Origin: an uncultured Bacteroidales bacterium
GTDB taxonomy: Bacteria > Bacteroidota > Bacteroidia > Bacteroidales > CAIWKO01
Length of the DNA stretch: 59,161 nt
Direction of reading: 5' to 3'
Assembly (NCBI GenBank): GCA_964567775.1
Contig: CAZMPB010000001.1
Location: forward strand, 1 to 59,161
Positions 1-58,835 of this stretch are shown one piece after another. Positions within the stretch are counted from its first letter, which is position 1, and every line of letters begins with the position of its first letter. The notes beneath the pieces are model-generated. The model saw only the letters and a program-made list of their open reading frames with translations, searched no databases and was not told the DNA's origin. Both the position numbers and the translations under genes were made by a program.

Positions 1-2217
1 CCAACTGTATCCGGAACATTTAACTACACCATTGATCTGACTGGAGGATGCGGAACAATTTCTACAACAGGCACGATCACGGTAATACCAAACAATACTA
101 TTACCCTGACCTCTGCCGTGGGCACCGATGCACAGGTCGTAGGTATCAATACGGCTATAACGAATATTACCTATGCCACCACTGGTGCCACAGGGTCTAC
201 AATAAGCGGTTTACCTGCAGGCGTGACCGGTAGCTGGGCGGCGAATGTGGTGACCATCACCGGCATCCCGACGGTAACCGGAACGTTTACATACACAATA
301 ACTTTAACCGGTGGGTGCGGAATAATCTCCACAACAGGGATGATTACAATAGCTCCGGACAATACCATCACCCTTAGTTCAGCAGTAGGTACCGATGCTC
401 AAACAGTATGCATCAACACGGCCATTACAAATATCACTTATGCTACCACAGGGGCTACGGGAGCTACGATAACAGGATTGCCGGCAGGTGTTACAGGTAA
501 CTGGGCCTCGAATGTCGTAACCATCACCGGGACACCTACCGTATCAGGAATATTTACATACACCATCACTTTAACGGGAGGCTATGGTTCAGTTACGGCA
601 AACGGCACTATAACAGTCACCCCCAACAACACGGCCGCCTTGAGTTCAGCCGCAGGCACTGATGCACAAACAATTTGTCCCAACGTAGCTATCACGAACA
701 TCACCTATTCCACTACAGGGGCTACGGGAGCTACGGTTACCGGGTTACCGGCAGGTGTCACAGGAAGCTGGGCTGCCGGCGTCGTGACCATCAGCGGCGC
801 ACCAACGGCAACAGGAACATTTACCTACACCATCACTTTAACAGGAGGTTGCGGAACGATAACAACAACCGGCACAATAATAGTAAACCCGGGCAATACG
901 ATCGCCTTAAGTTCTGCAGTTGGTACTGATGCACAGACTGTTTGTATCAATACGGTCATCACAAATATCACCTATGTAACTACAGTGGCAACGGGGGCAA
1001 CCGTAACAGGATTACCTGCAGGTGTGACAGGTAGCTGGGCCTCAAATGTTGTGACTATTAGCGGCACACCTTCGGTATCGGGTGTATTTACATACACCAT
1101 CAATTTAACAGGGGGTTGCGGAACAGTATCAGCAACAGGAACAATAACGGTATTGCCAAATAATACGATCACACTGACTGCGGGCGGAACACAGACCAAA
1201 TGTATAAATACAGCGATCACACCAACCACCTATGCTACTACGGGAGCGACCGGAGCAACAATCACGGGGTTACCCGCAGGTGTTAACGGAAACTGGGTCT
1301 CAAATACAGTAACGATAAGCGGTACGCCGACAGTATCCGGAACCTTTACATACACAGTTACGTTGACAGGTGGCTGCGGAACAATAACAACAACCGGAAT
1401 AATAACAGTAACCCCAAACAATACCATAACCCTGACTTCTGCAGCAGGCACAGATGCACAGACCAAATGTATCAACACAGCAATAACAACTATCACCTAT
1501 GCTACTACAGGAGCGACCGGAGCTATTGTCACAGGATTGCCCTCCGGCGTAACAGGAAGCTGGGCATCGAACACGGTAACTATTAACGGGGCATCAACAG
1601 CATCAGGAACATTTGTTTACACAATAACATTGATTGGAGGTTGTGGCAACGTTAATACCACCGGTTCGGTCACATTTAACCCGAATAATACTATTACCCT
1701 GACTTCAGCAGCCGGCACCAACGCACAGACTATATGTATCAATACCGCGTTAACAAATATCACTTATGCTACCACCGGCGCCACGGGAGCTACAATCAGC
1801 GGGTTGCCAACGGGTGTCAACGGAATGTGGGCCGCAAACGTGATAACTTTCAGCGGTACTCCGACGGTATCAGGAACATTTATCTACACGATAAACTTAA
1901 CAGGTGGTTGCGGAATAGTAACAACGACTGGAACGATCATCGTAAGGCCAAACAATACTATATCCCTGACCTCCGCTGCTGGAACCGATGCACAGACAAA
2001 ATGTATCAATTCTGCTATCACGCTTATTACATATTCGACCACAGGAGCCACGGGGGCCACTATTTCCGGATTACCGGCGGGCGTGACAGGAACCTGGGCC
2101 CTGGATGTGGTAGCGATAAGCGGAACACCTACGGCAGCAGGAACATTTACCTATACCGTCACGCTAACAGGTGGTTGCGGAACAATTACAGCAACAGGAA
2201 CGATAACGGTGAACCAG
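1..2217. repeat. Tandem coding repeats of ~267 bp (89 aa): one partial plus eight full units, one of them 258 bp
   Basis: The boundary motif P(N/D/G)NT(I/A)(T/A/S)L(T/S)S..GTDAQT.C recurs near nt 88, 354, 621, 888, 1155, 1413, 1681 and 1948. Every unit ends ...FTYTITLTGGCG. Each unit has two Cys. Confidence 0.85.
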
Positions 2218-3498
2218 AATGTGTTACCCACGTTTACAGCTATCGGGCCAATTTGCGCGAATGATACCCTGGCGCCACTGCCAACAACTTCAAATAATGG
2301 CATAACCGGTACCTGGTCGCCAGCTTTAAACAATACGGATACAACAACGTACACATTCACCCCAACATCAGGACTATGTGCCCTGACTACAACGATGACG
2401 ATCATCGTTAACCCGAACATTCTTCCGACATTTACTGCAATAGCACCAATCTGTTCGGGGGACACCCAATTACCTCTGCCAACAACATCAAATAACGGAA
2501 TTACAGGCACATGGAATCCTGCACTGGACAATACAACAACGACCACTTATACTTTTACGCCCACACCGGGACTTTGTGCAACAACGGCAACACTAACTAT
2601 TACTGTATATCCGGTTTACAATACCAACAATCCTCAAACAATCTGCTTCGGGCAATCCTATACGTTCAATTCACACACCTATACAACGACGGGAACATAC
2701 ATAGATACGCTCACAAGCGTTAACGGTTGCGATTCATTAATTACCACCAACCTGATCGTAAATCCCCTGCCGGTCATTACATTTAATCCCGACCCGGCTA
2801 TCGTTTGCCTGGGAGATTCACTTTCGATCCTGGCAAGCGGAGCCTCTACCTATTCATGGTCGCCAGGTTCGGGCTTGAACACAACGTCCGGCAACTATGT
2901 GATCGCTAACCCGACAACAACAACGACATATACGGTCATCGGATATGACGGAAATTTATGTTCTTCATCTGCAAGTCTGCAGGTTTATGTGGCGCCCATT
3001 CCTGTGGTGGATATCACCACCGAAAACCCAACGGTTTGTCCTGGAAACTTCATAAATCTCAACGCCACACCGGGATTTAGTACTTATTACTGGACCGAGG
3101 GAGGAGATAATGATTATACATCGGTGAATCACGGGGGACTATTTTTTGTACAGATATGGGATTCTCTGAATTGTACTTCTTATGACAGCATTTATATTGA
3201 GGAGGAATGCGAAACCACAATTTATATACCCAATGCGTTCACGCCTAATGGCGACGGGCTGAATGATTACTTCAACATTATTGGTGAAAATATTAAATCA
3301 CTGGAAATCTCGATATACACCAGGTGGGGCGAGGAAATATTTCACACGGATGACATGTCTGTATCATGGGATGGTAAATACAAGGGGGCAACGGTGCCTC
3401 AGGGAATATATACATGGTATATTGAATATGAAACTTATTATGTGAAAATGATAACGAACACGCAATCCCGCACGGGCATTGTAACTGTGATCAGGTAA
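1..3498 (+). CDS. 5'-truncated repeat-rich cell-surface protein with C-terminal T9SS type-B sorting domain (gliding-motility-associated CTD)
   Basis: Frame 1 is open from base 1 (PTVSGTFNYTIDLTGGCG...), so the ATG at 118 is internal. The body is built of 89-aa repeats. The C-terminus IYIPNAFTPNGDGLNDYF...WDGKYKG..VPQGIYTWYI fits the CHU_C/type-B T9SS CTD signature as I remember it. Confidence 0.85.
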   Translation, partial: PTVSGTFNYTIDLTGGCGTISTTGTITVIPNNTITLTSAVGTDAQVVGINTAITNITYATTGATGSTISGLPAGVTGSWAANVVTITGIPTVTGTFTYTITLTGGCGIISTTGMITIAPDNTITLSSAVGTDAQTVCINTAITNITYATTGATGATITGLPAGVTGNWASNVVTITGTPTVSGIFTYTITLTGGYGSVTANGTITVTPNNTAALSSAAGTDAQTICPNVAITNITYSTTGATGATVTGLPAGVTGSWAAGVVTISGAPTATGTFTYTITLTGGCGTITTTGTIIVNPGNTIALSSAVGTDAQTVCINTVITNITYVTTVATGATVTGLPAGVTGSWASNVVTISGTPSVSGVFTYTINLTGGCGTVSATGTITVLPNNTITLTAGGTQTKCINTAITPTTYATTGATGATITGLPAGVNGNWVSNTVTISGTPTVSGTFTYTVTLTGGCGTITTTGIITVTPNNTITLTSAAGTDAQTKCINTAITTITYATTGATGAIVTGLPSGVTGSWASNTVTINGASTASGTFVYTITLIGGCGNVNTTGSVTFNPNNTITLTSAAGTNAQTICINTALTNITYATTGATGATISGLPTGVNGMWAANVITFSGTPTVSGTFIYTINLTGGCGIVTTTGTIIVRPNNTISLTSAAGTDAQTKCINSAITLITYSTTGATGATISGLPAGVTGTWALDVVAISGTPTAAGTFTYTVTLTGGCGTITATGTITVNQNVLPTFTAIGPICANDTLAPLPTTSNNGITGTWSPALNNTDTTTYTFTPTSGLCALTTTMTIIVNPNILPTFTAIAPICSGDTQLPLPTTSNNGITGTWNPALDNTTTTTYTFTPTPGLCATTATLTITVYPVYNTNNPQTICFGQSYTFNSHTYTTTGTYIDTLTSVNGCDSLITTNLIVNPLPVITFNPDPAIVCLGDSLSILASGASTYSWSPGSGLNTTSGNYVIANPTTTTTYTVIGYDGNLCSSSASLQVYVAPIPVVDITTENPTVCPGNFINLNATPGFSTYYWTEGGDNDYTSVNHGGLFFVQIWDSLNCTSYDSIYIEEECETTIYIPNAFTPNGDGLNDYFNIIGENIKSLEISIYTRWGEEIFHTDDMSVSWDGKYKGATVPQGIYTWYIEYETYYVKMITNTQSRTGIVTVIR
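2218..2613. repeat. Two tandem 198-bp (66-aa) coding repeats of a second type
   Basis: NVLPTFTAIGPICANDTLAPLPTTSNNGITGTWSPALNNTDTTTYTFTPTSGLCALTTTMTIIVNP is followed directly by NILPTFTAIAPICSGDTQLPLPTTSNNGITGTWNPALDNTTTTTYTFTPTPGLCATTATLTITVYP. Confidence 0.8.
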
Positions 3499-7786: not shown

Positions 7787-7867
7787 GCCTTTGCGCGCTT
7801 TTGTGGTAAAAAAAAGAAAACCACGAAGTCGAACGAAGTACAGTCACAAAGGGACACAAAGGAAAAA
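7787..7867. repeat. Hairpin repeat unit U1 of the GxxExxY-associated family
   Basis: gcctttgcgcgcttttgtggtaaaaaaaagaaaaccacgaagt..acgaagtaca.tcacaaagggacacaaaggaaaaa. It has an inner stem gtggt/accac and an outer cctttg.g/cacaaagg complementarity. Confidence 0.7.
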
Positions 7868-7905
7868 TAAATTAAATATCAAAAAATGATTCATGTCACC
7901 CTTTG

Positions 7906-8002
7906 AGCGCCTTTGTGTAACGCCTTAGTGCGCCTTAGTGGTAAAAAGGTAAAACCACGAAGTATCACGAAGTACATTCACAAAGGGACACGAAGGAAAA
8001 AA
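7906..8002. repeat. Hairpin repeat unit U2, immediately 5' of the GxxExxY gene
   Basis: Same consensus as U1 and U3, with an internal 10-nt tandem duplication cgccttagtg cgccttagtg. It ends 12 nt before the ATG at 8014. Confidence 0.7.
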
Positions 8003-8013
8003 TAATTTATGTT

Positions 8014-8385
8014 ATGAATATTGAAGAGGTTTTTAAGAAAGTATTGGATTGTTGTTATCGCGTTCACAATGCATTGGGTCCTGGATTATTAGAAAGTGCT
8101 TATGAAGAGTGTTTGTATTACGAACTTATTCAAGCTGGATTAAAAGTTGAAAAACAAAAACACTTGCCGCTAATTTATAAAGAAGTAAAACTTGATGTTG
8201 GGTACCGGGTTGATCTGTTGGTGGAAAATTGTGTCATTGTTGAATTAAAGTCAGTTGAAGCCTTATGCGACATCCATATGGCAATAATACTTACCTACTT
8301 AAAGCTTTCTGGTTGTAAATTAGGTTTGCTGGCAAACTTTAACGTTCAACATTTAAAAGATGGATTAAAAAGAGTAATTTTATAA
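8014..8385 (+). CDS. GxxExxY protein (PD-(D/E)XK nuclease superfamily, PDDEXK_3-like)
   Basis: GPGLLESAYEECLYYEL carries the G-x-x-E-x-x-Y motif. RVDLLVENCVIVELK is the D...E.K nuclease-like core. 123 aa is the typical size. Confidence 0.85.
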   Translation: MNIEEVFKKVLDCCYRVHNALGPGLLESAYEECLYYELIQAGLKVEKQKHLPLIYKEVKLDVGYRVDLLVENCVIVELKSVEALCDIHMAIILTYLKLSGCKLGLLANFNVQHLKDGLKRVIL

Positions 8386-8394
8386 TCATTAACA

Positions 8395-8495
8395 ACACTT
8401 TGTGGTACTTAGTGTTACCCTTAGTGCGCCTTTGTGGTAAAAAAAGAAAACCACGATTAGCACGAAGTACATTCACAAAGGGACACGAAGGAAAA
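8395..8495. repeat. Hairpin repeat unit U3, immediately 3' of the GxxExxY gene
   Basis: ...ccttagtgcgcctttgtggtaaaaaaagaaaaccacgattagcacgaagtacattcacaaagggacacgaaggaaaaa is nearly identical to U2 over its 3' half. Confidence 0.7.
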
Positions 8496-8512
8496 ATTAA
8501 CTAAATTAAAAT

Positions 8513-14937: not shown

Positions 14938-16659
14938 ATGAATAAAGAAAAAATCCTGTTGTTTGTGGTTATCGCCTTCAGCTTGTTGCTTCGGATCAAC
15001 TTTGAAATAACATACCAGGATATGTATGTGGACAAGATGGTTCAGATTTCCGAAGCAAAAAATCTGATGATTGGCAACGGACTTTCAAATAGCGCGATTA
15101 ATTCCAATGATTTTACCAGTATTAGTTCAAATTATGTAAATAAATATGCCCCGGGTTATTCGCTATTTATTATTCCGTTTTATTTCATAGGCGGAGATTA
15201 TCATCTCGCCTCAATTATCATGGATGTGTTTTTTGTGGTATTATTGTATCTGGCGCTGATCCTGTTGCTAAATTGCCTGGACATACCCCCCAAAAAACAG
15301 ATTTTATTGTTTGTATTTCTCGGAATCTCATTTACTCCTTTTTACCATCTTTCATCGACCGACCTGATATCCATGACATTTTTTCAGTGGGCAATCTATT
15401 TTACAGTAAGGTATCTGAAAGATAAAGCCGGATATATCGGGATATCAGCACTGACCGGATTCTTGTTATATTTAACGGGGTTTATCAAATACAACTATTA
15501 TCCCTTGATGTTTTCTGTTCCTTTGGCCGCCTTTATTATAGGATATTTTAATAAAGAAAAACAGGTAAAATTATTTTCTGTTATCTGCGGTGTTGTTACG
15601 ATGGTTTTGTTGTTATTACAAAGCATTATTCTTAAAATGTTTGCCGGAAGCATGTTTATCATCGTTGATGAAACAGGAATTTTTTTAAGAAACTTGTTAC
15701 GCATGGATGTGTTCCCCTTTAAATCATTCTTTTTTTACGAAGGGCTCCTGACGAATCTCTTCGTATCACGCCCATACATGGAAACTATTTATATTTTGAT
15801 TGCCGCTGCTTTTTCACTTTTAGTCATCATAGAAACGATACGATTTATTTTAAAAAAGAACATCGGCAATGAGTCCACTCCAAAAAGTATGATTTTTGAA
15901 AATCAGCATTGCCCCGGTCCGCCAACTGGCGGAAGGCTGATTTTCTGCGACTTCCCTTTAGGGATTAAGGGCAAAAAGTCGCAGAATAAGGAAAACGGGG
16001 CTTTTCGGAGTGGACTCGACAATAAAACAATAAAAAACTATTTGATTTTAGGCTTAACCGCTTTGATTGTTAATGTTATGTTCCTGTCGTTTATGTCGCT
16101 TACACACAAAGCCCAGGCATGGCAAACACCACCATGGACATCGGTAGAAGAAACGAGGTATTATTCGCAATCGATGTTATTCATTGAAATCATTTTCCTG
16201 ACTTTTATATTGTTTGCACAGTATAAAACTAAATTTCAGAAAATAATTTATAAATCCATTGTATTGTTGGTTTTCGCATATGCAGGCCTCTATTGGCTTA
16301 ATAACGCATATACTATTTACGTAAAAAAGGACACCAGTTATACTTACCATGGAATGTACAAAGAAAATATCCAAATTACCGATGCTATTACAGCGAATAC
16401 CGAAAAAGATAAATTTACTGTTTTTTCATCTCCCGATCCGCAGATGAATCAATTTGTTTTTATTTTTACGGATGTTCAGGCAATAAACAATAATTATGCT
16501 GCCTTACTTAATGATACTGTAGTGAAAACCGATAAGCCTGTTACTTTATTCATCGCATCTCCGGGCAAAGAGAAAGACTTGAAAAATCTTAAAAAATATG
16601 TTCCTGTGAAAATTGCCGGATTTGAATCGTATGATTTATATAAAACTGAGATAAAATAA
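14938..16659 (+). CDS. Polytopic membrane protein, GT-C (PMT_2/ArnT-like) glycosyltransferase candidate, carrying an in-frame repeat-element insert
   Basis: Many hydrophobic helices. There are acidic residues after TM1 (EITYQDMYVDKM) and a YAPGYSLFIIPFYF motif. Residues encoded by 15871-16017 are a hydrophilic segment derived from a palindromic element. Confidence 0.6.
   Translation: MNKEKILLFVVIAFSLLLRINFEITYQDMYVDKMVQISEAKNLMIGNGLSNSAINSNDFTSISSNYVNKYAPGYSLFIIPFYFIGGDYHLASIIMDVFFVVLLYLALILLLNCLDIPPKKQILLFVFLGISFTPFYHLSSTDLISMTFFQWAIYFTVRYLKDKAGYIGISALTGFLLYLTGFIKYNYYPLMFSVPLAAFIIGYFNKEKQVKLFSVICGVVTMVLLLLQSIILKMFAGSMFIIVDETGIFLRNLLRMDVFPFKSFFFYEGLLTNLFVSRPYMETIYILIAAAFSLLVIIETIRFILKKNIGNESTPKSMIFENQHCPGPPTGGRLIFCDFPLGIKGKKSQNKENGAFRSGLDNKTIKNYLILGLTALIVNVMFLSFMSLTHKAQAWQTPPWTSVEETRYYSQSMLFIEIIFLTFILFAQYKTKFQKIIYKSIVLLVFAYAGLYWLNNAYTIYVKKDTSYTYHGMYKENIQITDAITANTEKDKFTVFSSPDPQMNQFVFIFTDVQAINNNYAALLNDTVVKTDKPVTLFIASPGKEKDLKNLKKYVPVKIAGFESYDLYKTEIK
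15871..16017. mobile_element. 147-bp MITE-like palindromic element with 17-nt terminal inverted repeats, inside a CDS and in frame
   Basis: TIRs are gagtccactccaaaaag (15871-15887) and cttttcggagtggactc (16001-16017), 16/17 complementary. Nested stems are gatttt/aaaatc, ccgcca/tggcgg, ctgcgactt/aagtcgcag and ccctt/aaggg. A second partial copy lies at 56743-56821. Confidence 0.7.
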
Positions 16660-22625: not shown

Positions 22626-22689
22626 ACATGATCGGTGGCTGCCGACAATCTTTCTAAAAGCCAATATAAAATTCAACGCCTGAAAAATA

Positions 22690-23101
22690 GGTAATTCCTT
22701 TTTTTGAGGTGCTGGATGAAAAAATGACGACTCAATTTATCAGGGAATAACATGTTTTTTATAAACACAATTTAGGAAGAAGAATTTAGCAGGGGCAGCG
22801 CCCCGAAATATTTGTAAGATTGAAACCCCTCAAAAATTAAGGTGCAGAGCACCGTAATATATTAGGGACACCACTCAAATAATAATTAAATATCAAATGT
22901 TTTTCACTGTCTTTTTGTCAAATCCCCTGTATTAAAACATTTCTTTTTACGGTGTTAAATAAGATGAATTCAGCATTACCTATAGGAATTGGGCATAACC
23001 AGAAGTTTAATATTGCGGTACGCCTGTCTGCCGACCAGGCAGGCTGTACCTTGTTTTTCGCGCTTATTATTATTTTACAAATTTTACGGTGCTCTGCACC
23101 T
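22690..23101. repeat. Copy A of a two-copy structured intergenic element, with an extra right-hand inverted repeat
   Basis: It shares these blocks with 54157-54533: ggtaatt.ctttttttgaggtgctgg, aggggc...gccccgaaatatttgt, aaggtgcagagcaccgtaa and ggtacgcctgtctgccga.ccaggcaggctg.acc. Order and spacing are the same in both copies. Confidence 0.7.
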
Positions 23102-39619: not shown

Positions 39620-41284
39620 TTAATCAGAATATATTTTTATTTGTAAATTAATTTTATCCAGGTTTTTTCTCTCCATGATACCATAGCCTTCAAATTGATA
39701 TGCTTTAAAGGTTAGAAAGTGTGGTTTTACTGCGATTAAGTGATAATTTTTTTCCGGAGTATAAGGATGGTATTCACTAAAGGGGTAAGGGCAATAATAT
39801 GGAAAAAAATTTAGAATAATTATATTATTAGGCAATAGATTTTTTCTTTCAAAGCCTCGGGAATGGTATATTACCTCTTCTATTTGTGAATCTAGATCGT
39901 CAAATTCAAATACGCTTTTTATTTTTTTCAAATCATATTTTTTACTTAAATCCCATACAATGTCCCGTGGATAGCCTAACGATTTATAGGTTAAAAAATT
40001 AACACTAAATTGAATTATAAATATTATTGATATTAAAAATAAAATTAAATTCCTTTTCCTAGTTATTTTATCTAATAAAAATTTTATTGAAAATATAGCG
40101 AAGATGATAAAAAACAAAATATATTGATGTACTAATCTTCCATAGAAAACCATTTTGTGAAAAAAATAACCTGAAGACGCATAAGCTAAAAAAATTACTA
40201 TTACTAAAGAGCCTAATAATAATAAGTCTGAATTATTTTTTAAAAAATTATTGTTTAGTATGGGTTTATTTAATATTTTTTCTTTTATATAAGGCATAAT
40301 TTGATATATTAAAATAATACAAAATAGTACTAACCCTATAATAATAATTACGCCATTAATATGCTCAACACTATAAAGGTACTTTATTATAAATGAAAAT
40401 GATTCCTCAAATGAGCCATTGTCTATCGTTTTGGATAGCCATAATGAATCTGATATTAATGATCTCCCACCCAATCGCGATGCCACTTCAAAAAGAAAAA
40501 GGCAAATAATGCTGCCCAGAAAATAAAAAAAGGCGTATTGTGTTTTTTTTAAAATATTTGCTTTTGATAAGCAATTAAAAAAGAAAAAAAGAAAACAAAC
40601 AAGAAACAATGTAAAATAACCAGGATAAACCAAAAATCCAAAAAATGAAATCAAGCCTAAAAGCAGAGATTTAAATGAAGTCAGGCTTTCATTTTTCTCA
40701 TATTTAAATGTTTTAAACAACACATAAAGCAAGATTAACAAACTTGCATCATAAGGATATGCGTGCCTCAGATAAATATATGAATTAGTTAATGTACAAT
40801 ATATTAGAACACATAAAAGAGAAAGAAGGGTATCTTTTAGTAAAAATTTTGCTATTTTATAAAAAAGTAAAAGAATAAAACAATAAATGATGAAATTATG
40901 AAGGAATAATGGATAATTGTTTTTTGTTTCATAATAATAAAGTTTAAAGATGCAGGCAGTTACATATTGAATTGCATTTGGCAATAAATTGACTATTGCA
41001 CTGGCCGGCCGGCCTTTTGTTAAAAAAATCGAATTAATAGCAGAATCTATTTTTAATTCTGAAGCATATTTCAATGCTGTTCCGGATGTCGTATAAAGGT
41101 TGTCATCATCGTTAGCCTTGAAGCCAGGGCCTATTAATCCAAGTTTAATAATGGTAATTATTATAATACTTGCAACTAGCAAATATTTTAATGGTTCTTG
41201 CTGAAATTTATTTATCGCATTAGATAAGACAAATCTAATCTTATTTGAGAAGGTTTTTTTATAGTTAATATTTTGGAATACCAT
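39620..41284 (-). CDS. Polytopic membrane protein with C-terminal soluble domain (GT-C-like candidate), tandem paralog 1
   Basis: 554 aa. It has an acidic FKANDDDNLY loop after TM1, more than 10 TM helices and a C-terminal ~130 aa hydrophilic domain. Highly similar to 41417-43084. Confidence 0.45.
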   Translation of the reverse strand: MVFQNINYKKTFSNKIRFVLSNAINKFQQEPLKYLLVASIIIITIIKLGLIGPGFKANDDDNLYTTSGTALKYASELKIDSAINSIFLTKGRPASAIVNLLPNAIQYVTACIFKLYYYETKNNYPLFLHNFIIYCFILLLFYKIAKFLLKDTLLSLLCVLIYCTLTNSYIYLRHAYPYDASLLILLYVLFKTFKYEKNESLTSFKSLLLGLISFFGFLVYPGYFTLFLVCFLFFFFNCLSKANILKKTQYAFFYFLGSIICLFLFEVASRLGGRSLISDSLWLSKTIDNGSFEESFSFIIKYLYSVEHINGVIIIIGLVLFCIILIYQIMPYIKEKILNKPILNNNFLKNNSDLLLLGSLVIVIFLAYASSGYFFHKMVFYGRLVHQYILFFIIFAIFSIKFLLDKITRKRNLILFLISIIFIIQFSVNFLTYKSLGYPRDIVWDLSKKYDLKKIKSVFEFDDLDSQIEEVIYHSRGFERKNLLPNNIIILNFFPYYCPYPFSEYHPYTPEKNYHLIAVKPHFLTFKAYQFEGYGIMERKNLDKINLQIKIYSD

Positions 41285-41416: not shown

Positions 41417-43084
41417 TTAATCAGAATATATTTTTATTTGTAAATTAATTTTTTCCAGGTTTTTTCTCTCCATGATACCATAGCCTTCAAATTGATATGC
41501 TTTAAAGGTTAGAAAGTGTGGTTTTACTGCGATTAAGTGATAATTTTTTTCCGGAGTATAAGGATGGTATTCACTAAAGTCGTATGGACAATTATATTCA
41601 AAACAGTTTAGAATAATTATATTATTAGGTAATAGATTTTTCCTTTCAAAGTAACGGGAATGATACATTACCGCTTCAACTTGTGAATATTGATCGTCAA
41701 ATTCAAATACGCTTTTTATTTTTTTTAAATCATATTTTTTACTTAAATCCCAAACAATATCCCGTGGATAACCTAACGATTTGTAGGTTGAAAAATTAAC
41801 ACTAAATTGAATAATAAATAATATTGATATTAAAAATAAAATTAAATTCTTTTTCTTGGTTATTTTATCTAATAAATAATTTATAGAAAATACAGCAAAG
41901 ATGATTAAAAACAAAATATATTGATGTACTAATCTTCCATAGAAAACCATTTTATGAAAAAAATAACCACTGGATGCAAAAGCTAAAAAAATAACTATTA
42001 TTAAAGATCCCAACAATAATAAGTCTGAATTAATTCTTATAAATTTATTTTGGGGAATAGGTTTATCCGAAAATTTATTATTATTTATATAAAATCTAAT
42101 ATTATATAATAGAATAAAACAAAAGAGTGCTAACCCTATGATAATAATTATACCATTAATATGCTCAACACTAAAAAGGTACTTTATTATAAATGAAAAT
42201 GATTCCTCAAATGAGCCATTGTCTATAGTATTGGATAGGGTTAATGCATCCGATATTAATGATCTCCCACCCAATCGCGATGCCACTTCAAAAAGGAAAA
42301 GGCAAATAATGCTGCCCAGAAAATAAAAAAAGGCGTATTGTGTTTTTTTAAAAATATTTGCTTTTGACAAGCAATTAAAAAAGAAAAAAAGAAAGCAAAC
42401 AAGAAACAATGTAAAATAACCAGGATAAACCAAAAATCCAAAAAATGAAATCAAGCCTAAAAGCAGAGATTTAAATGAAGTCAGGCTTTCATTTTTCTCA
42501 TATTTAAATGTTTTAAACAACACATAAAGCAAGATTAACAAACTTGCATCATAAGGATATGCGTGCCTCAGATAAATATATGAATTAGTTAATGTACAAT
42601 ATATTAGAACACATAAAAGAGAAAGAAGGGTATCTTTTAGTAAAAATTTTGCTATTTTATAAAAAAGTATAAGAATGAAACAATAAATGATGAAATTATA
42701 AATAAATAATGGATAATTGTTTTTTGTTTCATAATAATAAAGATTAAAGATACGGGCAGTAACATATTGAATGGCATTTGGCACTAAATTAATTATTGAA
42801 CTGGCTGGTCTGCCTTTTGTTAAAAAAATCGAATTAATGGCAGAATCTATTTTAAATTCGGATATATATTTTAATGCTGTACCAGACGTTGTATAAAGAT
42901 TTTCATCATCGTTATGTTTGAAACCAGGCCCCATTAATCCAAGTTTAATAATGGTAATTATTATAATACTTGCGAAAATCAAATGTTTTAATGGTTGTTG
43001 CCTGAACTTTTTAAGAGCATTGGATAAGGTAAGTTTAATTTTATTTGAGAAAGTTTTTTTATGGTTAATAATTGGGGATGACAT
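41417..43084 (-). CDS. Polytopic membrane protein with C-terminal soluble domain (GT-C-like candidate), tandem paralog 2
   Basis: 555 aa with an FKHNDDENLY loop. It has long stretches of nucleotide identity with paralog 1. Confidence 0.45.
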   Translation of the reverse strand: MSSPIINHKKTFSNKIKLTLSNALKKFRQQPLKHLIFASIIIITIIKLGLMGPGFKHNDDENLYTTSGTALKYISEFKIDSAINSIFLTKGRPASSIINLVPNAIQYVTARIFNLYYYETKNNYPLFIYNFIIYCFILILFYKIAKFLLKDTLLSLLCVLIYCTLTNSYIYLRHAYPYDASLLILLYVLFKTFKYEKNESLTSFKSLLLGLISFFGFLVYPGYFTLFLVCFLFFFFNCLSKANIFKKTQYAFFYFLGSIICLFLFEVASRLGGRSLISDALTLSNTIDNGSFEESFSFIIKYLFSVEHINGIIIIIGLALFCFILLYNIRFYINNNKFSDKPIPQNKFIRINSDLLLLGSLIIVIFLAFASSGYFFHKMVFYGRLVHQYILFLIIFAVFSINYLLDKITKKKNLILFLISILFIIQFSVNFSTYKSLGYPRDIVWDLSKKYDLKKIKSVFEFDDQYSQVEAVMYHSRYFERKNLLPNNIIILNCFEYNCPYDFSEYHPYTPEKNYHLIAVKPHFLTFKAYQFEGYGIMERKNLEKINLQIKIYSD

Positions 43085-53822: not shown

Positions 53823-54156
53823 AATACTTTAGCTCAACTATTTGTTTGCGTAACAAAATTAGGCATTTTCTGCTTAATTATCTTTATTTTAAACACATCG
53901 GAAAGTTTTTTATTAATTGCAAAAACTGCAAGGATGCCATTACTTTTTATATCTCTTTAAGAGGCTTCTGTCAAAAAATATCAATATGACTGATTGTGTA
54001 TCACCAGTCCCGAAACCGGAAACTTTTTCAGGCTGCAGCCAACTCATCAGCAAAAATCAAAATCCTTATAAACAGCGAGGAAGGCATCCTAAAAAGGTCT
54101 AAGTACGAGACATCACGGCCTGTTCCAGCCTATTCATCGGACGATAAATTGAAATT

Positions 54157-54533
54157 GGTAATTTCTTTTTTTGAGGTGCTGGTAAAAAAAATGATAACTC
54201 AAATTTGTCTGAGAATCTCATGTTTTTTTTCAAACATTATATTAGAAAAAAGGCTTTATCAGGGGCGGAGCCCCGAAATATTTGTTAGAAATGGTACCCC
54301 AAAAAAAAAGTAAGGTGCAGAGCACCGTAACATACCATCGGCTACACACTCACAAATGCAGACTTTCGGTTGTGGGAAGCATGATAAAGATTTTTGTCAG
54401 CAAGGTGTTTGGTAACAATGCAATTTTTTCCGATTGTAAATACAAGATTTACCCATCATTGCAAATAGGTCTGGCCATTATCAGGAGACCCATATTCCGG
54501 TACGCCTGTCTGCCGAGCCAGGCAGGCTGCACC
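54157..54533. repeat. Copy B of the two-copy structured intergenic element
   Basis: See copy A. The conserved blocks are at 54157-54182, 54260-54285, 54313-54330 and 54499-54533. The interior is diverged but alignable. Confidence 0.7.
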
Positions 54534-54936
54534 TGTTATAACTCAGATAGGGATATTCCGGTAGAATAATGTCAGCGAGGATGACAATAAAAACAAGTGA
54601 AATGATCGCCAACACTTTCCAGTAAAATTATTTTTAAAATTAATATAATAATTATTTGCAACCATTGATTAGTTTCAGCGCCTCAAATTATGATTTTGCC
54701 GATAAATTAAAAATCATGACTTTTAATTTTTTTATTTACTTTTACATGGATATTTTCAGGTTATTAACCTGAATTTTTGGGGGATTAAAATTGTTGTTCC
54801 CATCGTGATAATTTTATTGTAAAAAGTTTTGAAAGATTTTTGGTTCCGTTGTTATGTATTGCCTGGTGGCGCTTTTATACATCAGGTATTTGTTATAACG
54901 ATCCGGAAAAAATTTCTTTGTTTTTAAATTACTGCT

Positions 54937-56052: not shown

Positions 56053-56655
56053 ATGTCGCACAGATTTTCTGTTTCAGCCTGGTTAAAAAACTTACCTCCT
56101 GCCGGTAAAGTTGTATTTTTCGTCATAAAATTACTGGCCATATATCTTACATGGTACTATATTGACGAATACATGCGGGCATCAGACGGCGAGCCGCTTA
56201 TTGTCAGGATATGGTGGTTTGGCTACCATATTTTATTAAAAAGCACTATGTTTTTAAGCTATAATTTATCGGTTCTTTTTACTGATGTCAATATAACAAC
56301 GACTTACAGATATTTCCTGATTGAGAACCACGGGTATCTGTATGTCGGCAATCCCTGCCTCTGCGCCGATGTCATGTGCCTGTTTGCCGCTTTTATCATT
56401 GCTTATCCCGGCAGGTGGAAAACAAAATTGTGGTTTATCCCCTTAGGTTTCTTGGCTATACACCTGATAAATGTTTTGAGGATTGCAGCCTTATGCCTCA
56501 CAAAAATCTACCGCCCGGAATGGATGGACATTAATCATAAATTCATTTTCAATATCATCGTCTTTACCTTTGTTTTCATTTTATGGATGATCTGGGTAAA
56601 GCGCTTTTCGGGTGCAGACCTTTTAAAGAAAAACGCAACAAAACAAGGGGATTAA
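56053..56655 (+). CDS. xrtF: Exosortase/archaeosortase-family membrane protein, XrtF-like
   Basis: 200 aa and all-TM. A Cys region VGNPCLCADVMCLF is followed ~47 aa later by AIHLINVLRIAAL, the Arg/His region typical of exosortases. Size fits the Bacteroidota XrtF class. Recalled from memory, not searched. Confidence 0.55.
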   Translation: MSHRFSVSAWLKNLPPAGKVVFFVIKLLAIYLTWYYIDEYMRASDGEPLIVRIWWFGYHILLKSTMFLSYNLSVLFTDVNITTTYRYFLIENHGYLYVGNPCLCADVMCLFAAFIIAYPGRWKTKLWFIPLGFLAIHLINVLRIAALCLTKIYRPEWMDINHKFIFNIIVFTFVFILWMIWVKRFSGADLLKKNATKQGD

Positions 56656-56663
56656 AACCGATT

Positions 56664-56697
56664 TAAAAAAATATCCTCCGCGGAGGATATTTTTTCA
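56664..56697 (+). terminator. Rho-independent, bidirectional-type terminator
   Basis: aaaaaaa-tatcctccg/cggaggata-tttttt. A perfect 9-bp (10 bp with the flanking a-t pair) GC-containing palindrome is flanked by an A-run and a T-run, 9 nt after the xrtF stop. Confidence 0.75.
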
Positions 56698-56742
56698 TCG
56701 GCATAACCCTGTCAGACTGTCGCAGACAGGGCAGGGGCGTTT

Positions 56743-56821
56743 GATTTTCTGCGACTTTCCCTTCGGGATTAAGGGTGAAATGTCGCAGGTTAAGAAGAAC
56801 GAGGCTTTTCGGAGTGGGCTC
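56743..56821. repeat. Partial (right-hand) copy of the 15871-16017 palindromic element
   Basis: By hand alignment, 67 of 79 positions are identical to 15939-16017, including the ctgcgac/gtcgcag and ccctt/aaggg stems and the terminal cttttcggagtgg.ctc. No left TIR is present. Confidence 0.7.
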
Positions 56822-56921: not shown

Positions 56922-57629
56922 TCATACAGTTTTATCAATAATGGGAAATACTTCATATAGTTTGAGCAAAGAAATAACTTCAGATTTTAATTTTTTCCTG
57001 ACAAATAATTTCATATCCTCATCCATTAGCTCGCCCAGCCCATTTAACAAACTAATTTCTTTTCCACTTTCTATTACACAAATACACTTCCGAAAATAAG
57101 TAATTATATCCGTTTTCATTCTGTCTTCTACTATATTTGCATTAACTGCTGTGCGGCTTTGCATAAAATACCAGCAATCGAATATATCCCTGTTAGCAAG
57201 CATGTTCCTATCCAACAGCGCACACAACTTATGGGCAAACATATCCGATTGTTTCATCACTTTTATCTTAATACCTAAAAAATCTTTTATTTCATATCTG
57301 TCATTAAATTGACGATTGGAAATTTCGATTTTCAAATTTCTTTCATTTTCTCCATAATCAAGCACGATAATAAGGCCAAAGTGTTTTTTTGCTTCGTCTT
57401 TAATACGGCCATAGCGGATTAAAATTTTTCTCAATTTTTCGTAAATCAAATTGGTTTTAGATATATCCAATAAATTAAAATCAATATCAACAGAAAATCT
57501 AGGCAAATCATAGAATAGCATAATTGCTGTCCCCCCCTTAAAACCTAAACTATTAGCTAATTCTATGTCAGCATAAATATCCTTAAGAATTTGTACAATA
57601 AAAAATTTGTGTCTGTTTAAATCAAACAT
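56922..57629 (-). CDS. abiEii: AbiEii/AbiGii-family nucleotidyltransferase toxin (type IV TA)
   Basis: GFKGGTAIMLFYDLPRFSVDIDF matches the KGGTAL...R.S.D.DF signature of DUF1814/AbiEii. Confidence 0.8.
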   Translation of the reverse strand: MFDLNRHKFFIVQILKDIYADIELANSLGFKGGTAIMLFYDLPRFSVDIDFNLLDISKTNLIYEKLRKILIRYGRIKDEAKKHFGLIIVLDYGENERNLKIEISNRQFNDRYEIKDFLGIKIKVMKQSDMFAHKLCALLDRNMLANRDIFDCWYFMQSRTAVNANIVEDRMKTDIITYFRKCICVIESGKEISLLNGLGELMDEDMKLFVRKKLKSEVISLLKLYEVFPIIDKTV

Positions 57630-58194
57630 TTTCCAGTATTTTTTTTACACGAATATCTAATTTTTTGGAATTATATATTGGCAATAATTTTTGAATTATT
57701 TCTTTGTTTAGCATGGGCGAATTGTCAAAATAAAAGTCTTTATCTAAATACAAAGTATCTAAAAAAGCCCTCTCCGGTGTCGCGATATTTATTCCATCTG
57801 CACCACGTAGTATGCCGGTAGTATTCAATAATATTTGGTTTTTAATTTTTCTAAACCCCAGCTTATGATTGTCTACAATAATATTTCTGCTCAAATAACT
57901 AACTACTGTAAGTTGCTCGTTGTATTGAAATATAATTCCGGCTTTATTTAATACGTATTCTAGGGAAATATATGCTGGCACATAAATCTTGCAGGCCAAT
58001 TCCTCCTTGTTATAGCCGGGTTTTGAATATATTCCGCGCCTCAAGCTGTTAATGGCTTTTGTGCGAACATAATGATTTATTTTTTGCTTTAAACGATTAA
58101 AATTCGATTCGTTTAACAACATCGATATGTCTCTCAAACAAAACACTGTTTGATTTGCTTTATATAAGGATAATATAAAGTTGTTTTTCCTCAT
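57622..58194 (-). CDS. abiEi: AbiEi-family antitoxin candidate
   Basis: 190 aa, directly upstream of the AbiEii gene and overlapping it by 8 nt. Blocks such as PERAFLDTLYL are typical of AbiEi C-terminal domains. Confidence 0.6.
   Translation of the reverse strand: MRKNNFILSLYKANQTVFCLRDISMLLNESNFNRLKQKINHYVRTKAINSLRRGIYSKPGYNKEELACKIYVPAYISLEYVLNKAGIIFQYNEQLTVVSYLSRNIIVDNHKLGFRKIKNQILLNTTGILRGADGINIATPERAFLDTLYLDKDFYFDNSPMLNKEIIQKLLPIYNSKKLDIRVKKILENV

Positions 58195-58762: not shown

Positions 58763-58835
<73 letters not shown>

Follow-up and report, generated by a model that had tools for sequence, protein, structure and literature searches.

A probable miniature inverted-repeat transposable element read through in frame in a membrane-protein gene of an uncultured Bacteroidales bacterium

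The 59,161-nt stretch of DNA analysed here (the window; contig CAZMPB010000001.1 of an uncultured Bacteroidales bacterium) contains a 573-residue open reading frame (ORF) at positions 14938-16659 of the + strand, which encodes a membrane protein of many helices that ends in an alpha/beta domain, as judged from the ORF list and an AlphaFold2 model. Inside this ORF, at 15871-16017 (+), lies a 147-nt palindromic element that is translated in the frame of the host gene on paper. The element is best explained, at a probability of about 0.85, as a non-autonomous DNA transposon, or MITE (for miniature inverted-repeat transposable element), belonging to a small and previously unnamed family in uncultured Bacteroidales, because terminal inverted repeats come together with a target duplication of fixed length, with scattered copies of several sizes and with close relatives in which the site is empty.

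The insertion is visible from the comparison of filled and empty alleles. A protein search retrieves 14 homologues of the host protein, and in an alignment of 13 sequences 11 lack exactly 51 residues at the insertion point and otherwise share one common loop length. These insert-free homologues reach down to 42% identity and the closest of them, P0003 and P0004, are 94% and 92% identical to the window protein; the segment is carried by the window protein and by P0002 (91% identical). The empty alleles L002 and L003 hold a single intact GGCAAT target in their DNA (...CGGCAATAAA...), while the filled alleles of the window and of L001 read GGCAAT-[147 or 141 nt]-GACAAT. The left target-site duplication of the window copy, GGCAAT, is at 15865-15870 (+), and the right one, GACAAT, which matches it in five of six positions, is at 16018-16023 (+). 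From this comparison, therefore, the added DNA is the element plus a 6-bp repeat, 153 nt or 51 codons in total, in which the element codes for 49 of the inserted residues (ESTPKS...RSGL) and the right duplication for the last two, D and N. An earlier reading of the same DNA, made from its letters alone (the sequence-only reading), had counted a 49-codon insert, which is the length of the element itself and two codons short of the gain relative to the empty alleles. A 4-bp duplication (CAAT) around a 149-nt element was also considered and rejected: the two extra bases vary among copies (GA, AA, TT, CA), and in 12 of 13 insertions the flanks agree with a 6-bp duplication. The insert is found at the same site in three other independent assemblies (L001 from ENA, the GTDB metagenome-assembled genome (MAG) L005 and L029 from JGI), all with the same G-to-A difference in the right duplication, so it is not an assembly artefact.

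These alleles also bear on the idea that the 51 residues are native to the protein and were lost in some homologues, the second copy in the window being a chance or paralogous similarity. The segment is indeed open in frame in two lineages that are ~10% diverged. The idea is nevertheless ruled out by the uniform loop length of the 11 insert-free homologues, by the inverted repeats together with the direct duplication of the flanking hexamer, by a G+C content of 48% against 34% in the host ORF (14 points higher), and by near-identical DNA at more than 12 loci that are unrelated and mostly lie between genes, with a separate 6-bp duplication at each. The proposal of the sequence-only reading that this is repeated mobile DNA and not native coding sequence thus holds, both in the alignment of orthologues that it suggested as a check, where 11 of the 13 lack the segment, and in the nucleotide copies with 6-bp duplications at many unrelated loci.

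The element is bounded by a left terminal inverted repeat, GAGTCCACTCCAAAAAG, at 15871-15887 (+), which is kept across the family copies, and by a right one, CTTTTCGGAGTGGACTC, at 16001-16017 (+), which is placed by the family alignment; the two pair with each other and match at 16 of 17 positions. With up to three mismatches, the 17-mer has three sites in the 59-kb window against 0.08 expected, a number reached in none of 100 shuffles, and two of these sites are the ends of the element, while the third, at 56805-56821, is the right end of a second copy. The minimum-free-energy fold has -68.3 kcal/mol (z -7.5) for the + strand and -70.3 kcal/mol (z -9.0) for the - strand, no shuffle among 200 folds as stably, and on either strand a 17-bp closing stem surrounds three hairpins. 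Hairpin 1 (GATTTT-TG-AAAATC, 15891-15904, +) belongs to the single-sequence fold; in its place the consensus fold of the family pairs GAAAATCAGC (15898-15907) with GCTGATTTTC (15936-15945). Hairpin 2 (CCGCCA/TGGCGG, 15917-15933, +) is a variable module, present in the window in its 147-nt-type version. Hairpin 3 (15945-15984, +), again from the single-sequence fold, has an outer stem CTGCGACTT/AAGTCGCAG and an inner stem CCCTT/AAGGG. The 17-nt repeats with 16 complementary positions, the four nested stems and the uninterrupted passage of the 573-residue frame through 147 nt, all described from the letters alone, are reproduced by the 17-mer search, the minimum-free-energy fold and a frame check, respectively. 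Among the six frames of the element, the host frame is the only one free of stops.

Pairing in hairpin 3 is retained in 95% of cells across 15 copies, although the invariance of its outer stem is partly an artefact, since the scan patterns required those bases. Covariation is not significant in either the family fold or hairpin 3, the two that were tested, so the stems are conserved by sequence and not by covariation. This matters for a further explanation, in which the insert is a structured RNA (a small self-splicing intron, a ribozyme or a gene for a small RNA) or an intein-like segment that is removed after transcription or translation. A very stable multi-branch fold, with a 17-bp closing stem that would join the exon ends, speaks for an RNA of this kind. 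Against it stand, besides the lack of covariation, the length of 147 nt, much too small for a group I or group II intron, and the 6-bp target duplications, a signature of DNA transposition. The element matches no Rfam family: at the gathering score of Rfam 15 the only match in the window is a tRNA at 58763-58835, and at E values up to 10 only chance-level eukaryotic families appear. By the general criteria of size and junction residues an intein fits no better, as 51 residues are too few, the segment starts with E, and its last residue is N followed by K instead of Cys, Ser or Thr. Removal of the insert at the RNA or protein level is thus very improbable.

Copies of the element occur in uncultured Bacteroidales MAGs and in sludge and digester metagenomes. 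A scan of GTDB species genomes with one pattern from the 3' half of the element finds five copies in two Bacteroidales MAGs, AMR_MDS_1269 and AMR_MDS_2557, and a scan of metagenome contigs gives 24 matches, of which 16 are real copies by blastn. The dropped matches (eight of the 24 from metagenomes and three of eight from genomes) are unrelated CTGCGAC...GTCGCAG hairpins or chance hits. Once identical loci are collapsed, both ends are present at 14 sites, and four further copies are truncated at the 5' end or degenerate, the second copy of the window being one of these four. Further nucleotide copies, which the sequence-only reading had proposed to look for, thus exist outside the window.

All full-length copies have the same termini, 17-nt repeats with the consensus GAGYCCACTCCRAAAAG that begin with GAGTCC, GAGCCC or GAGACC. 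The 6-bp flanks of 13 insertions match at six of six positions in six cases (AATGAT, AACAAT, ATAACT, ATGTAT, AAATTT and AATCTT), at five of six in another six and at three of six in one, against an average of 1.8 of six in control windows offset by 10-59 nt; the copy at L036 has no matching flanks by eye. Four length classes are present. Hairpin 2 is CCGCCAACTGGCGG in the 147-nt class and CCCTAAAGGG in the 139-141-nt class, hairpins 1 and 2 are gone from the 96-98-nt class by a deletion between two TGATTTT repeats, and in the class of ~185-200 nt an extra GC-rich palindrome takes the place of hairpin 2. Such length variants fit the decay of a MITE. The coding capacity of the 96-200-nt copies is limited to read-throughs of the element itself, of 48-81 residues, and includes no transposase.

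The second family member in the window (56673-56821, +) is intergenic, between an ORF at 56053-56655 (+) and an AbiEii gene at 56922-57629 (-). Over its 3' 80 nt (56742-56821) it has 85% identity with the first copy, and a repeat finder independently pairs this part with 15938-16017 at the same identity. Its 5' part is diverged and resembles the long variant of L022 and L036, and its left repeat is degenerate and overlaps a terminator-like hairpin (56664-56697). The copy had been described from the letters as an intergenic repeat at 56743-56821; its position between genes stands, and the extent was probably too short, as the similarity suggests that the copy reaches leftwards to about 56673-56690.

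The gene directly downstream of this copy encodes an AbiEii-type nucleotidyltransferase toxin (PF08843, E 1.5e-21), and the ORF next to it on the upstream side (57622-58194), which matches no family, may encode the AbiEi partner. At another locus (L010:1369-1884) a 5'-truncated MITE copy provides the first ~20 codons of a 171-residue ORF whose C-terminus is a sorting domain for type IX secretion (PF18962, E 5e-9), as if a gene had been cut short at a junction associated with the MITE.

The position inside a gene is exceptional for the family. Stop-to-stop frames over each copy place only one of 18 distinct sites inside a long ORF, which is the window site, shared by the window, L001, L005 and L029; the other copies are intergenic, several of them 4-9 nt from the end of a gene. 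The sum of element length and duplication is a multiple of three for copies of 147, 141 and 96 nt and not for those of 139, 140, 98 and 200 nt, and the host frame is open in seven of the 14 listed copies (six of 13 sites). A full HMMER scan in which the 52-residue insert peptide was compared with 1.84 billion representative proteins finds no long protein, only three short ORFs of 64, 81 and 48 residues (P0016, P0017 and P0018), all of them intergenic copies that had wrongly been called as genes (L021, L036/L037 and a short-variant copy). The single-frame 52-residue peptide gives one 64-residue ORF in an index of 5.8 billion proteins; six concatenated frame translations give no match in the same index, not even the window protein, which reflects a limitation of the word index and is not evidence.

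These counts bear on the possibility that the family is a Bacteroidota counterpart of the Rickettsia palindromic elements (RPEs), recurrently placed in frame in genes and giving rise to peptide modules. The sequence-only reading had drawn the analogy with RPEs, and for the window copy it fits: like the 105-146-nt palindromic repeats of Rickettsia, this copy is ~150 nt long, palindromic, stop-free and in frame in a conserved functional gene, to which it adds a hydrophilic peptide, and the host frame is open in half of the listed copies. The analogy does not extend to the family. RPEs are known from 19 protein reading frames (PMC2229807) or from 44 integrations into genes of R. conorii (PMC10969869), against one of 18 sites here; the lengths often break the frame; the peptide scan gave nothing beyond short miscalled ORFs; there is no conserved peptide-coding constraint across the family; and the target-site duplication is clear, while it is entered as "?" for RPEs in Table 1 of PMC2229807. 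The host is also a member of Bacteroidales and not a Rickettsia, which makes homology to RPE-1 to RPE-10 unlikely. From the single genic site, the mixed lengths, the half-open frames and the protein scan, it follows that the family has no RPE-like tendency to sit in genes and is an ordinary, mostly intergenic MITE, and that a counterpart of the RPEs is improbable. The window copy would simply have happened on the single permissive orientation and phase, and so have escaped purifying selection.

The host gene has remained under selection with its insert. The ORF is intact in four independent assemblies, and the lineages of the window and of L001 are about 90% identical in DNA. Between these two, the ratio of nonsynonymous to synonymous divergence (dN/dS) is 0.108 upstream of the insert, with a synonymous divergence (dS) of 0.35, and 0.110 downstream, with a dS of 0.43, the same values as in comparisons with insert-free alleles. 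Purifying selection has therefore continued to act on the gene after the insertion, and also on the portion that is translated only if the element is read through.

Within the insert, the only length difference between the window and L001 is 6 nt and keeps the frame. It lies in hairpin 2, which in the orthologous copies of L001, L005 and L029 is the 141-nt-type version ACCCTAAAGGG, 6 nt shorter than that of the window, and both versions also occur at other loci, each matching a different subfamily. The window copy and these three have private variants in common, namely GCAGAATAAGG and the right duplication GACAAT, and therefore descend from one insertion. The pattern suggests that hairpin 2 was swapped by ectopic conversion from another copy and that the outcome was filtered by selection on the reading frame.

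Several points weigh against a simple MITE insertion. Measured by dS, the window is nearer to L002 and L003, which lack the insert, than to L001, which has it. Outside the 17-nt patch of hairpin 2, the orthologous copies differ at one of ~126 nt, and the flanks at ~10%. A single old, neutral insertion does not fit these two observations without recombination, excision or nucleotide-level constraint. The copy number is low, with two to three matches per MAG under the strict pattern and nine contigs in one metagenome. Lastly, the window, 37 loci covering ~330 kb and plasmid, phage and viral collections yielded no autonomous insertion sequence with matching ends; in all retrieved DNA this search for the parent element covered extra ends and inverted repeats 600-3000 nt apart. 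Mobilisation in trans would have to be assumed.

Nucleotide-level constraint is the basis of another explanation, in which the element was exapted as an mRNA structure that modulates translation or stability, as a stretch of DNA to which a protein binds, or as a loop with a function. The single difference outside hairpin 2, set against a flanking dS of 0.35-0.43, is what such constraint would leave, and so are the very stable fold, the exchange of hairpin 2 for the version of another subfamily with the frame kept, and the location within the element of the longest mismatch-free run (94 nt) of a 4.2-kb alignment. However, the same alignment has runs of 91 and 88 nt at other places, so mosaic recombination suffices as an explanation and special constraint is not called for; stem covariation is not significant, two close homologues do without the insert, and intergenic copies decay in the ordinary way by truncations and deletions. 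Exaptation is thus unlikely, though it deserves more weight than the RPE-like, RNA or native readings. The same low standing is given to a broader alternative, that the in-gene copy is a near-invariant exapted module (an mRNA structure or a cytoplasmic loop) whose middle hairpin was swapped in frame, or else that the family seeds in-frame inserts repeatedly as RPEs do. In our reading of a MITE insertion, conversion of hairpin 2 would have been accompanied either by spread of the filled allele through recombination or by precise excision of the element in the branch of L002 and L003.

The gene that received the element lies in a surface-glycan cluster, together with genes for a PIG-L deacetylase, a GNAT protein, WbqC, a GT61-like enzyme, a GT2 enzyme and a methyltransferase. 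Searches of the host protein find no family in Pfam or NCBIfam, and profile and sequence searches of PDB return nothing relevant. Its AlphaFold model (mean predicted local distance difference test (pLDDT) 68, predicted template-modelling score (pTM) 0.73) has about 11 predicted membrane helices followed by the soluble C-terminal domain. The best 12 Foldseek matches in PDB are all glycosyltransferases of the C fold (GT-C), including ArnT (5ezm), STT3, AglB, DPY19, AftB, ALG3 and AftD, with E values of ~1e-3 or worse, template-modelling (TM) scores of 0.35-0.39, a root-mean-square deviation above 10 A and probabilities of up to 1.00. Asp28 and Asp32, the latter with Lys33, are invariant in 13 homologues and come directly after helix 1 in the first extracytoplasmic loop, where the two aspartates may have a catalytic role. 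The order of helices and soluble domain, the invariant acidic residues (Asp28 and Asp32) in the first extracytoplasmic loop and the place in a glycan cluster resemble GT-C enzymes such as ArnT, PglB/STT3, DPY19 and AftB, the group to which all 12 best fold matches belong; unlike these, the host protein matches no Pfam, NCBIfam or PDB profile (e.g. PMT_2, ArnT, STT3). Of the designation as a GT-C membrane protein in the sequence-only reading, the membrane protein is well founded, and the GT-C part, with no family match and a fold similarity at TM ~0.39, may be correct: as a label it is reasonable and unproven.

In the model, residues 307-360 have a pLDDT of 23-29 and no secondary structure and form a disordered loop between the helices 280-305 and 362-389, in agreement with the hydrophilic segment between membrane helices that had been expected from the letters. 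Without the insert this loop is short and rich in Lys and Arg (...RFILKKNIG-NKTIKN...). It is probably cytoplasmic, because of these basic residues and because of the helix count back from the C-terminal soluble domain.

A plausible course of events for a MITE starts with a transposase, supplied in trans by an insertion sequence, which would have moved the element by cut-and-paste or copying into the GGCAAT of the membrane-protein gene. With 153 nt in total and the only stop-free frame in use, 51 codons would have been added without truncation of the gene. The insert would fall in the short basic loop, away from the periplasmic face on which GT-C enzymes act, so that an extra disordered peptide could be tolerated and the gene kept under purifying selection while the insert-bearing lineages diverged. 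Most likely the insert is transcribed and translated as part of the protein, by analogy with the guanylate kinase gene (gmk) of Rickettsia, for which experiments showed that the RPE-containing product is translated and active (PMC2229807). Tryptic peptides of the insert would include LIFCDFPLGIK and SMIFENQHCPGPPTGGR.

The element resembles bacterial MITEs such as Correia/NEMIS, ERIC, RUP, QMITE1/2 and MITEAba12, which are non-coding, ~100-200 nt long and bounded by terminal inverted repeats (PMC2229807, PMC10969869, PMC5896051). It shares with them a duplication of fixed length, AT-rich targets, a long stem-loop when single-stranded, a mostly intergenic position with occasional in-frame fusion, length variants and truncated copies. 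According to reviews, many bacterial MITEs have open frames that are joined in frame to host ORFs, RPEs being the extreme case, and such fusions have been called "not unusual" (PMC10969869, PMC2229807); the QMITE2 of Coxiella gives further examples (PMC5896051). The Bacteroidales family differs in its 6-bp duplication without TA termini, in a copy number that appears low and in its sequence, which is unrelated to any family checked in Rfam, in plasmid and phage collections and among literature strings: blastn of the element against the plasmid and phage collections finds no match, paired-end and left-end patterns have none in viral contigs, and no relevant paper contains the repeat sequences in a literature string search.

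The sequence-only reading knew of no described equivalent in Bacteroidota. This family does appear to be unnamed, but MITEs as such are already described in Porphyromonas gingivalis, a member of the same order, where MITE239, MITE700, MITEPgRS/464 and BrickBuilt are mobilised by IS5-family ISPg elements (partners ISPg1/3/4; PMC2575886, PMC4596501). The termini of ISPg1, ISPg4 and BrickBuilt start with GAGACC or GAGCCC (PMC4596501, Table 2), like the GAG(T/C/A)CC of the Bacteroidales family, and MITE239, too, has a copy within a gene, glk (PMC2575886). The similarity goes no further than these 6 nt. The elements of P. gingivalis measure 239-720 nt or contain tandem repeats in their interior, a strictly intergenic position is reported for BrickBuilt, and MITE239 is described as disrupting glk and not as extending it in frame. 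The GAGNCC terminus can be taken as a lead to an IS5-family partner and not as a test of one. A 6-bp duplication is not known to be typical of the IS5 subgroups. An element of the REP/RAYT or IS200/IS605 type does not fit the 17-nt terminal repeats and the 6-bp duplications, and no GTAG or CGTC head is visible in the sequence. Elements of those types are short palindromes of 20-40 nt with GTAG/CGTC heads or subterminal hairpins, and they have no signature of inverted repeats and duplication. What is new is an unnamed MITE family; the kind of element is not, as in-frame MITE fusions are documented for RPE, ERIC, Correia and QMITE.

Other features of the window are recorded here in their own right. 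An intergenic repeat of ~380 nt, with GC-rich hairpins CAGGGGCAGCGCCCCG, GGTGCAGAGCACC and CCTGTCTGCCGACCAGGCAGG, is present at 22685-23060 and 54152-54540 (75-85% identity), and a third copy, 87% identical, is found on a metagenome contig (L027:1085-1454), ~190 nt upstream of another MITE copy. It belongs to no Rfam family, the best match, algC, being below threshold (E 0.054). A shorter repeat of 65-100 nt has three intergenic copies at 7788-7883, 7923-8017 and 8419-8512 (...GTGGTAAAAA..AAAACCACGAAG..CACGAAGTACATTCACAAAGGGACACGAAGG...), around the ORF at 8014-8385, which encodes a protein of the PD-(D/E)XK nuclease superfamily (PF13366, E 2e-40). Positions 1-2400 include nine tandem coding repeats of 267 nt (89 residues, 65-75% identity) in the ORF at 118-3498, whose 1126-residue product ends in a CHU_C type IX secretion sorting domain. 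Two tandem paralogues at 39620-41284 and 41417-43084 (554 and 555 residues) are 90-93% identical in DNA, and neither has a Pfam family.

No new class of element is opened by these results, since Rickettsia, enterobacteria, Neisseria and Coxiella are established cases of in-frame MITE fusion. They add an unnamed MITE family, from uncultured lineages of wastewater and digesters, to the few described for Bacteroidales, and they point to a hazard in annotation, as public catalogues hold intergenic MITE copies as "proteins" of 48-81 residues. For one site, the empty and filled alleles, the target duplication and the selection statistics are all available. As judged from these sequences, the locus would be a natural case in which a protein gains a loop of 51 residues in one step from selfish DNA and, by the selection statistics, stays functional.

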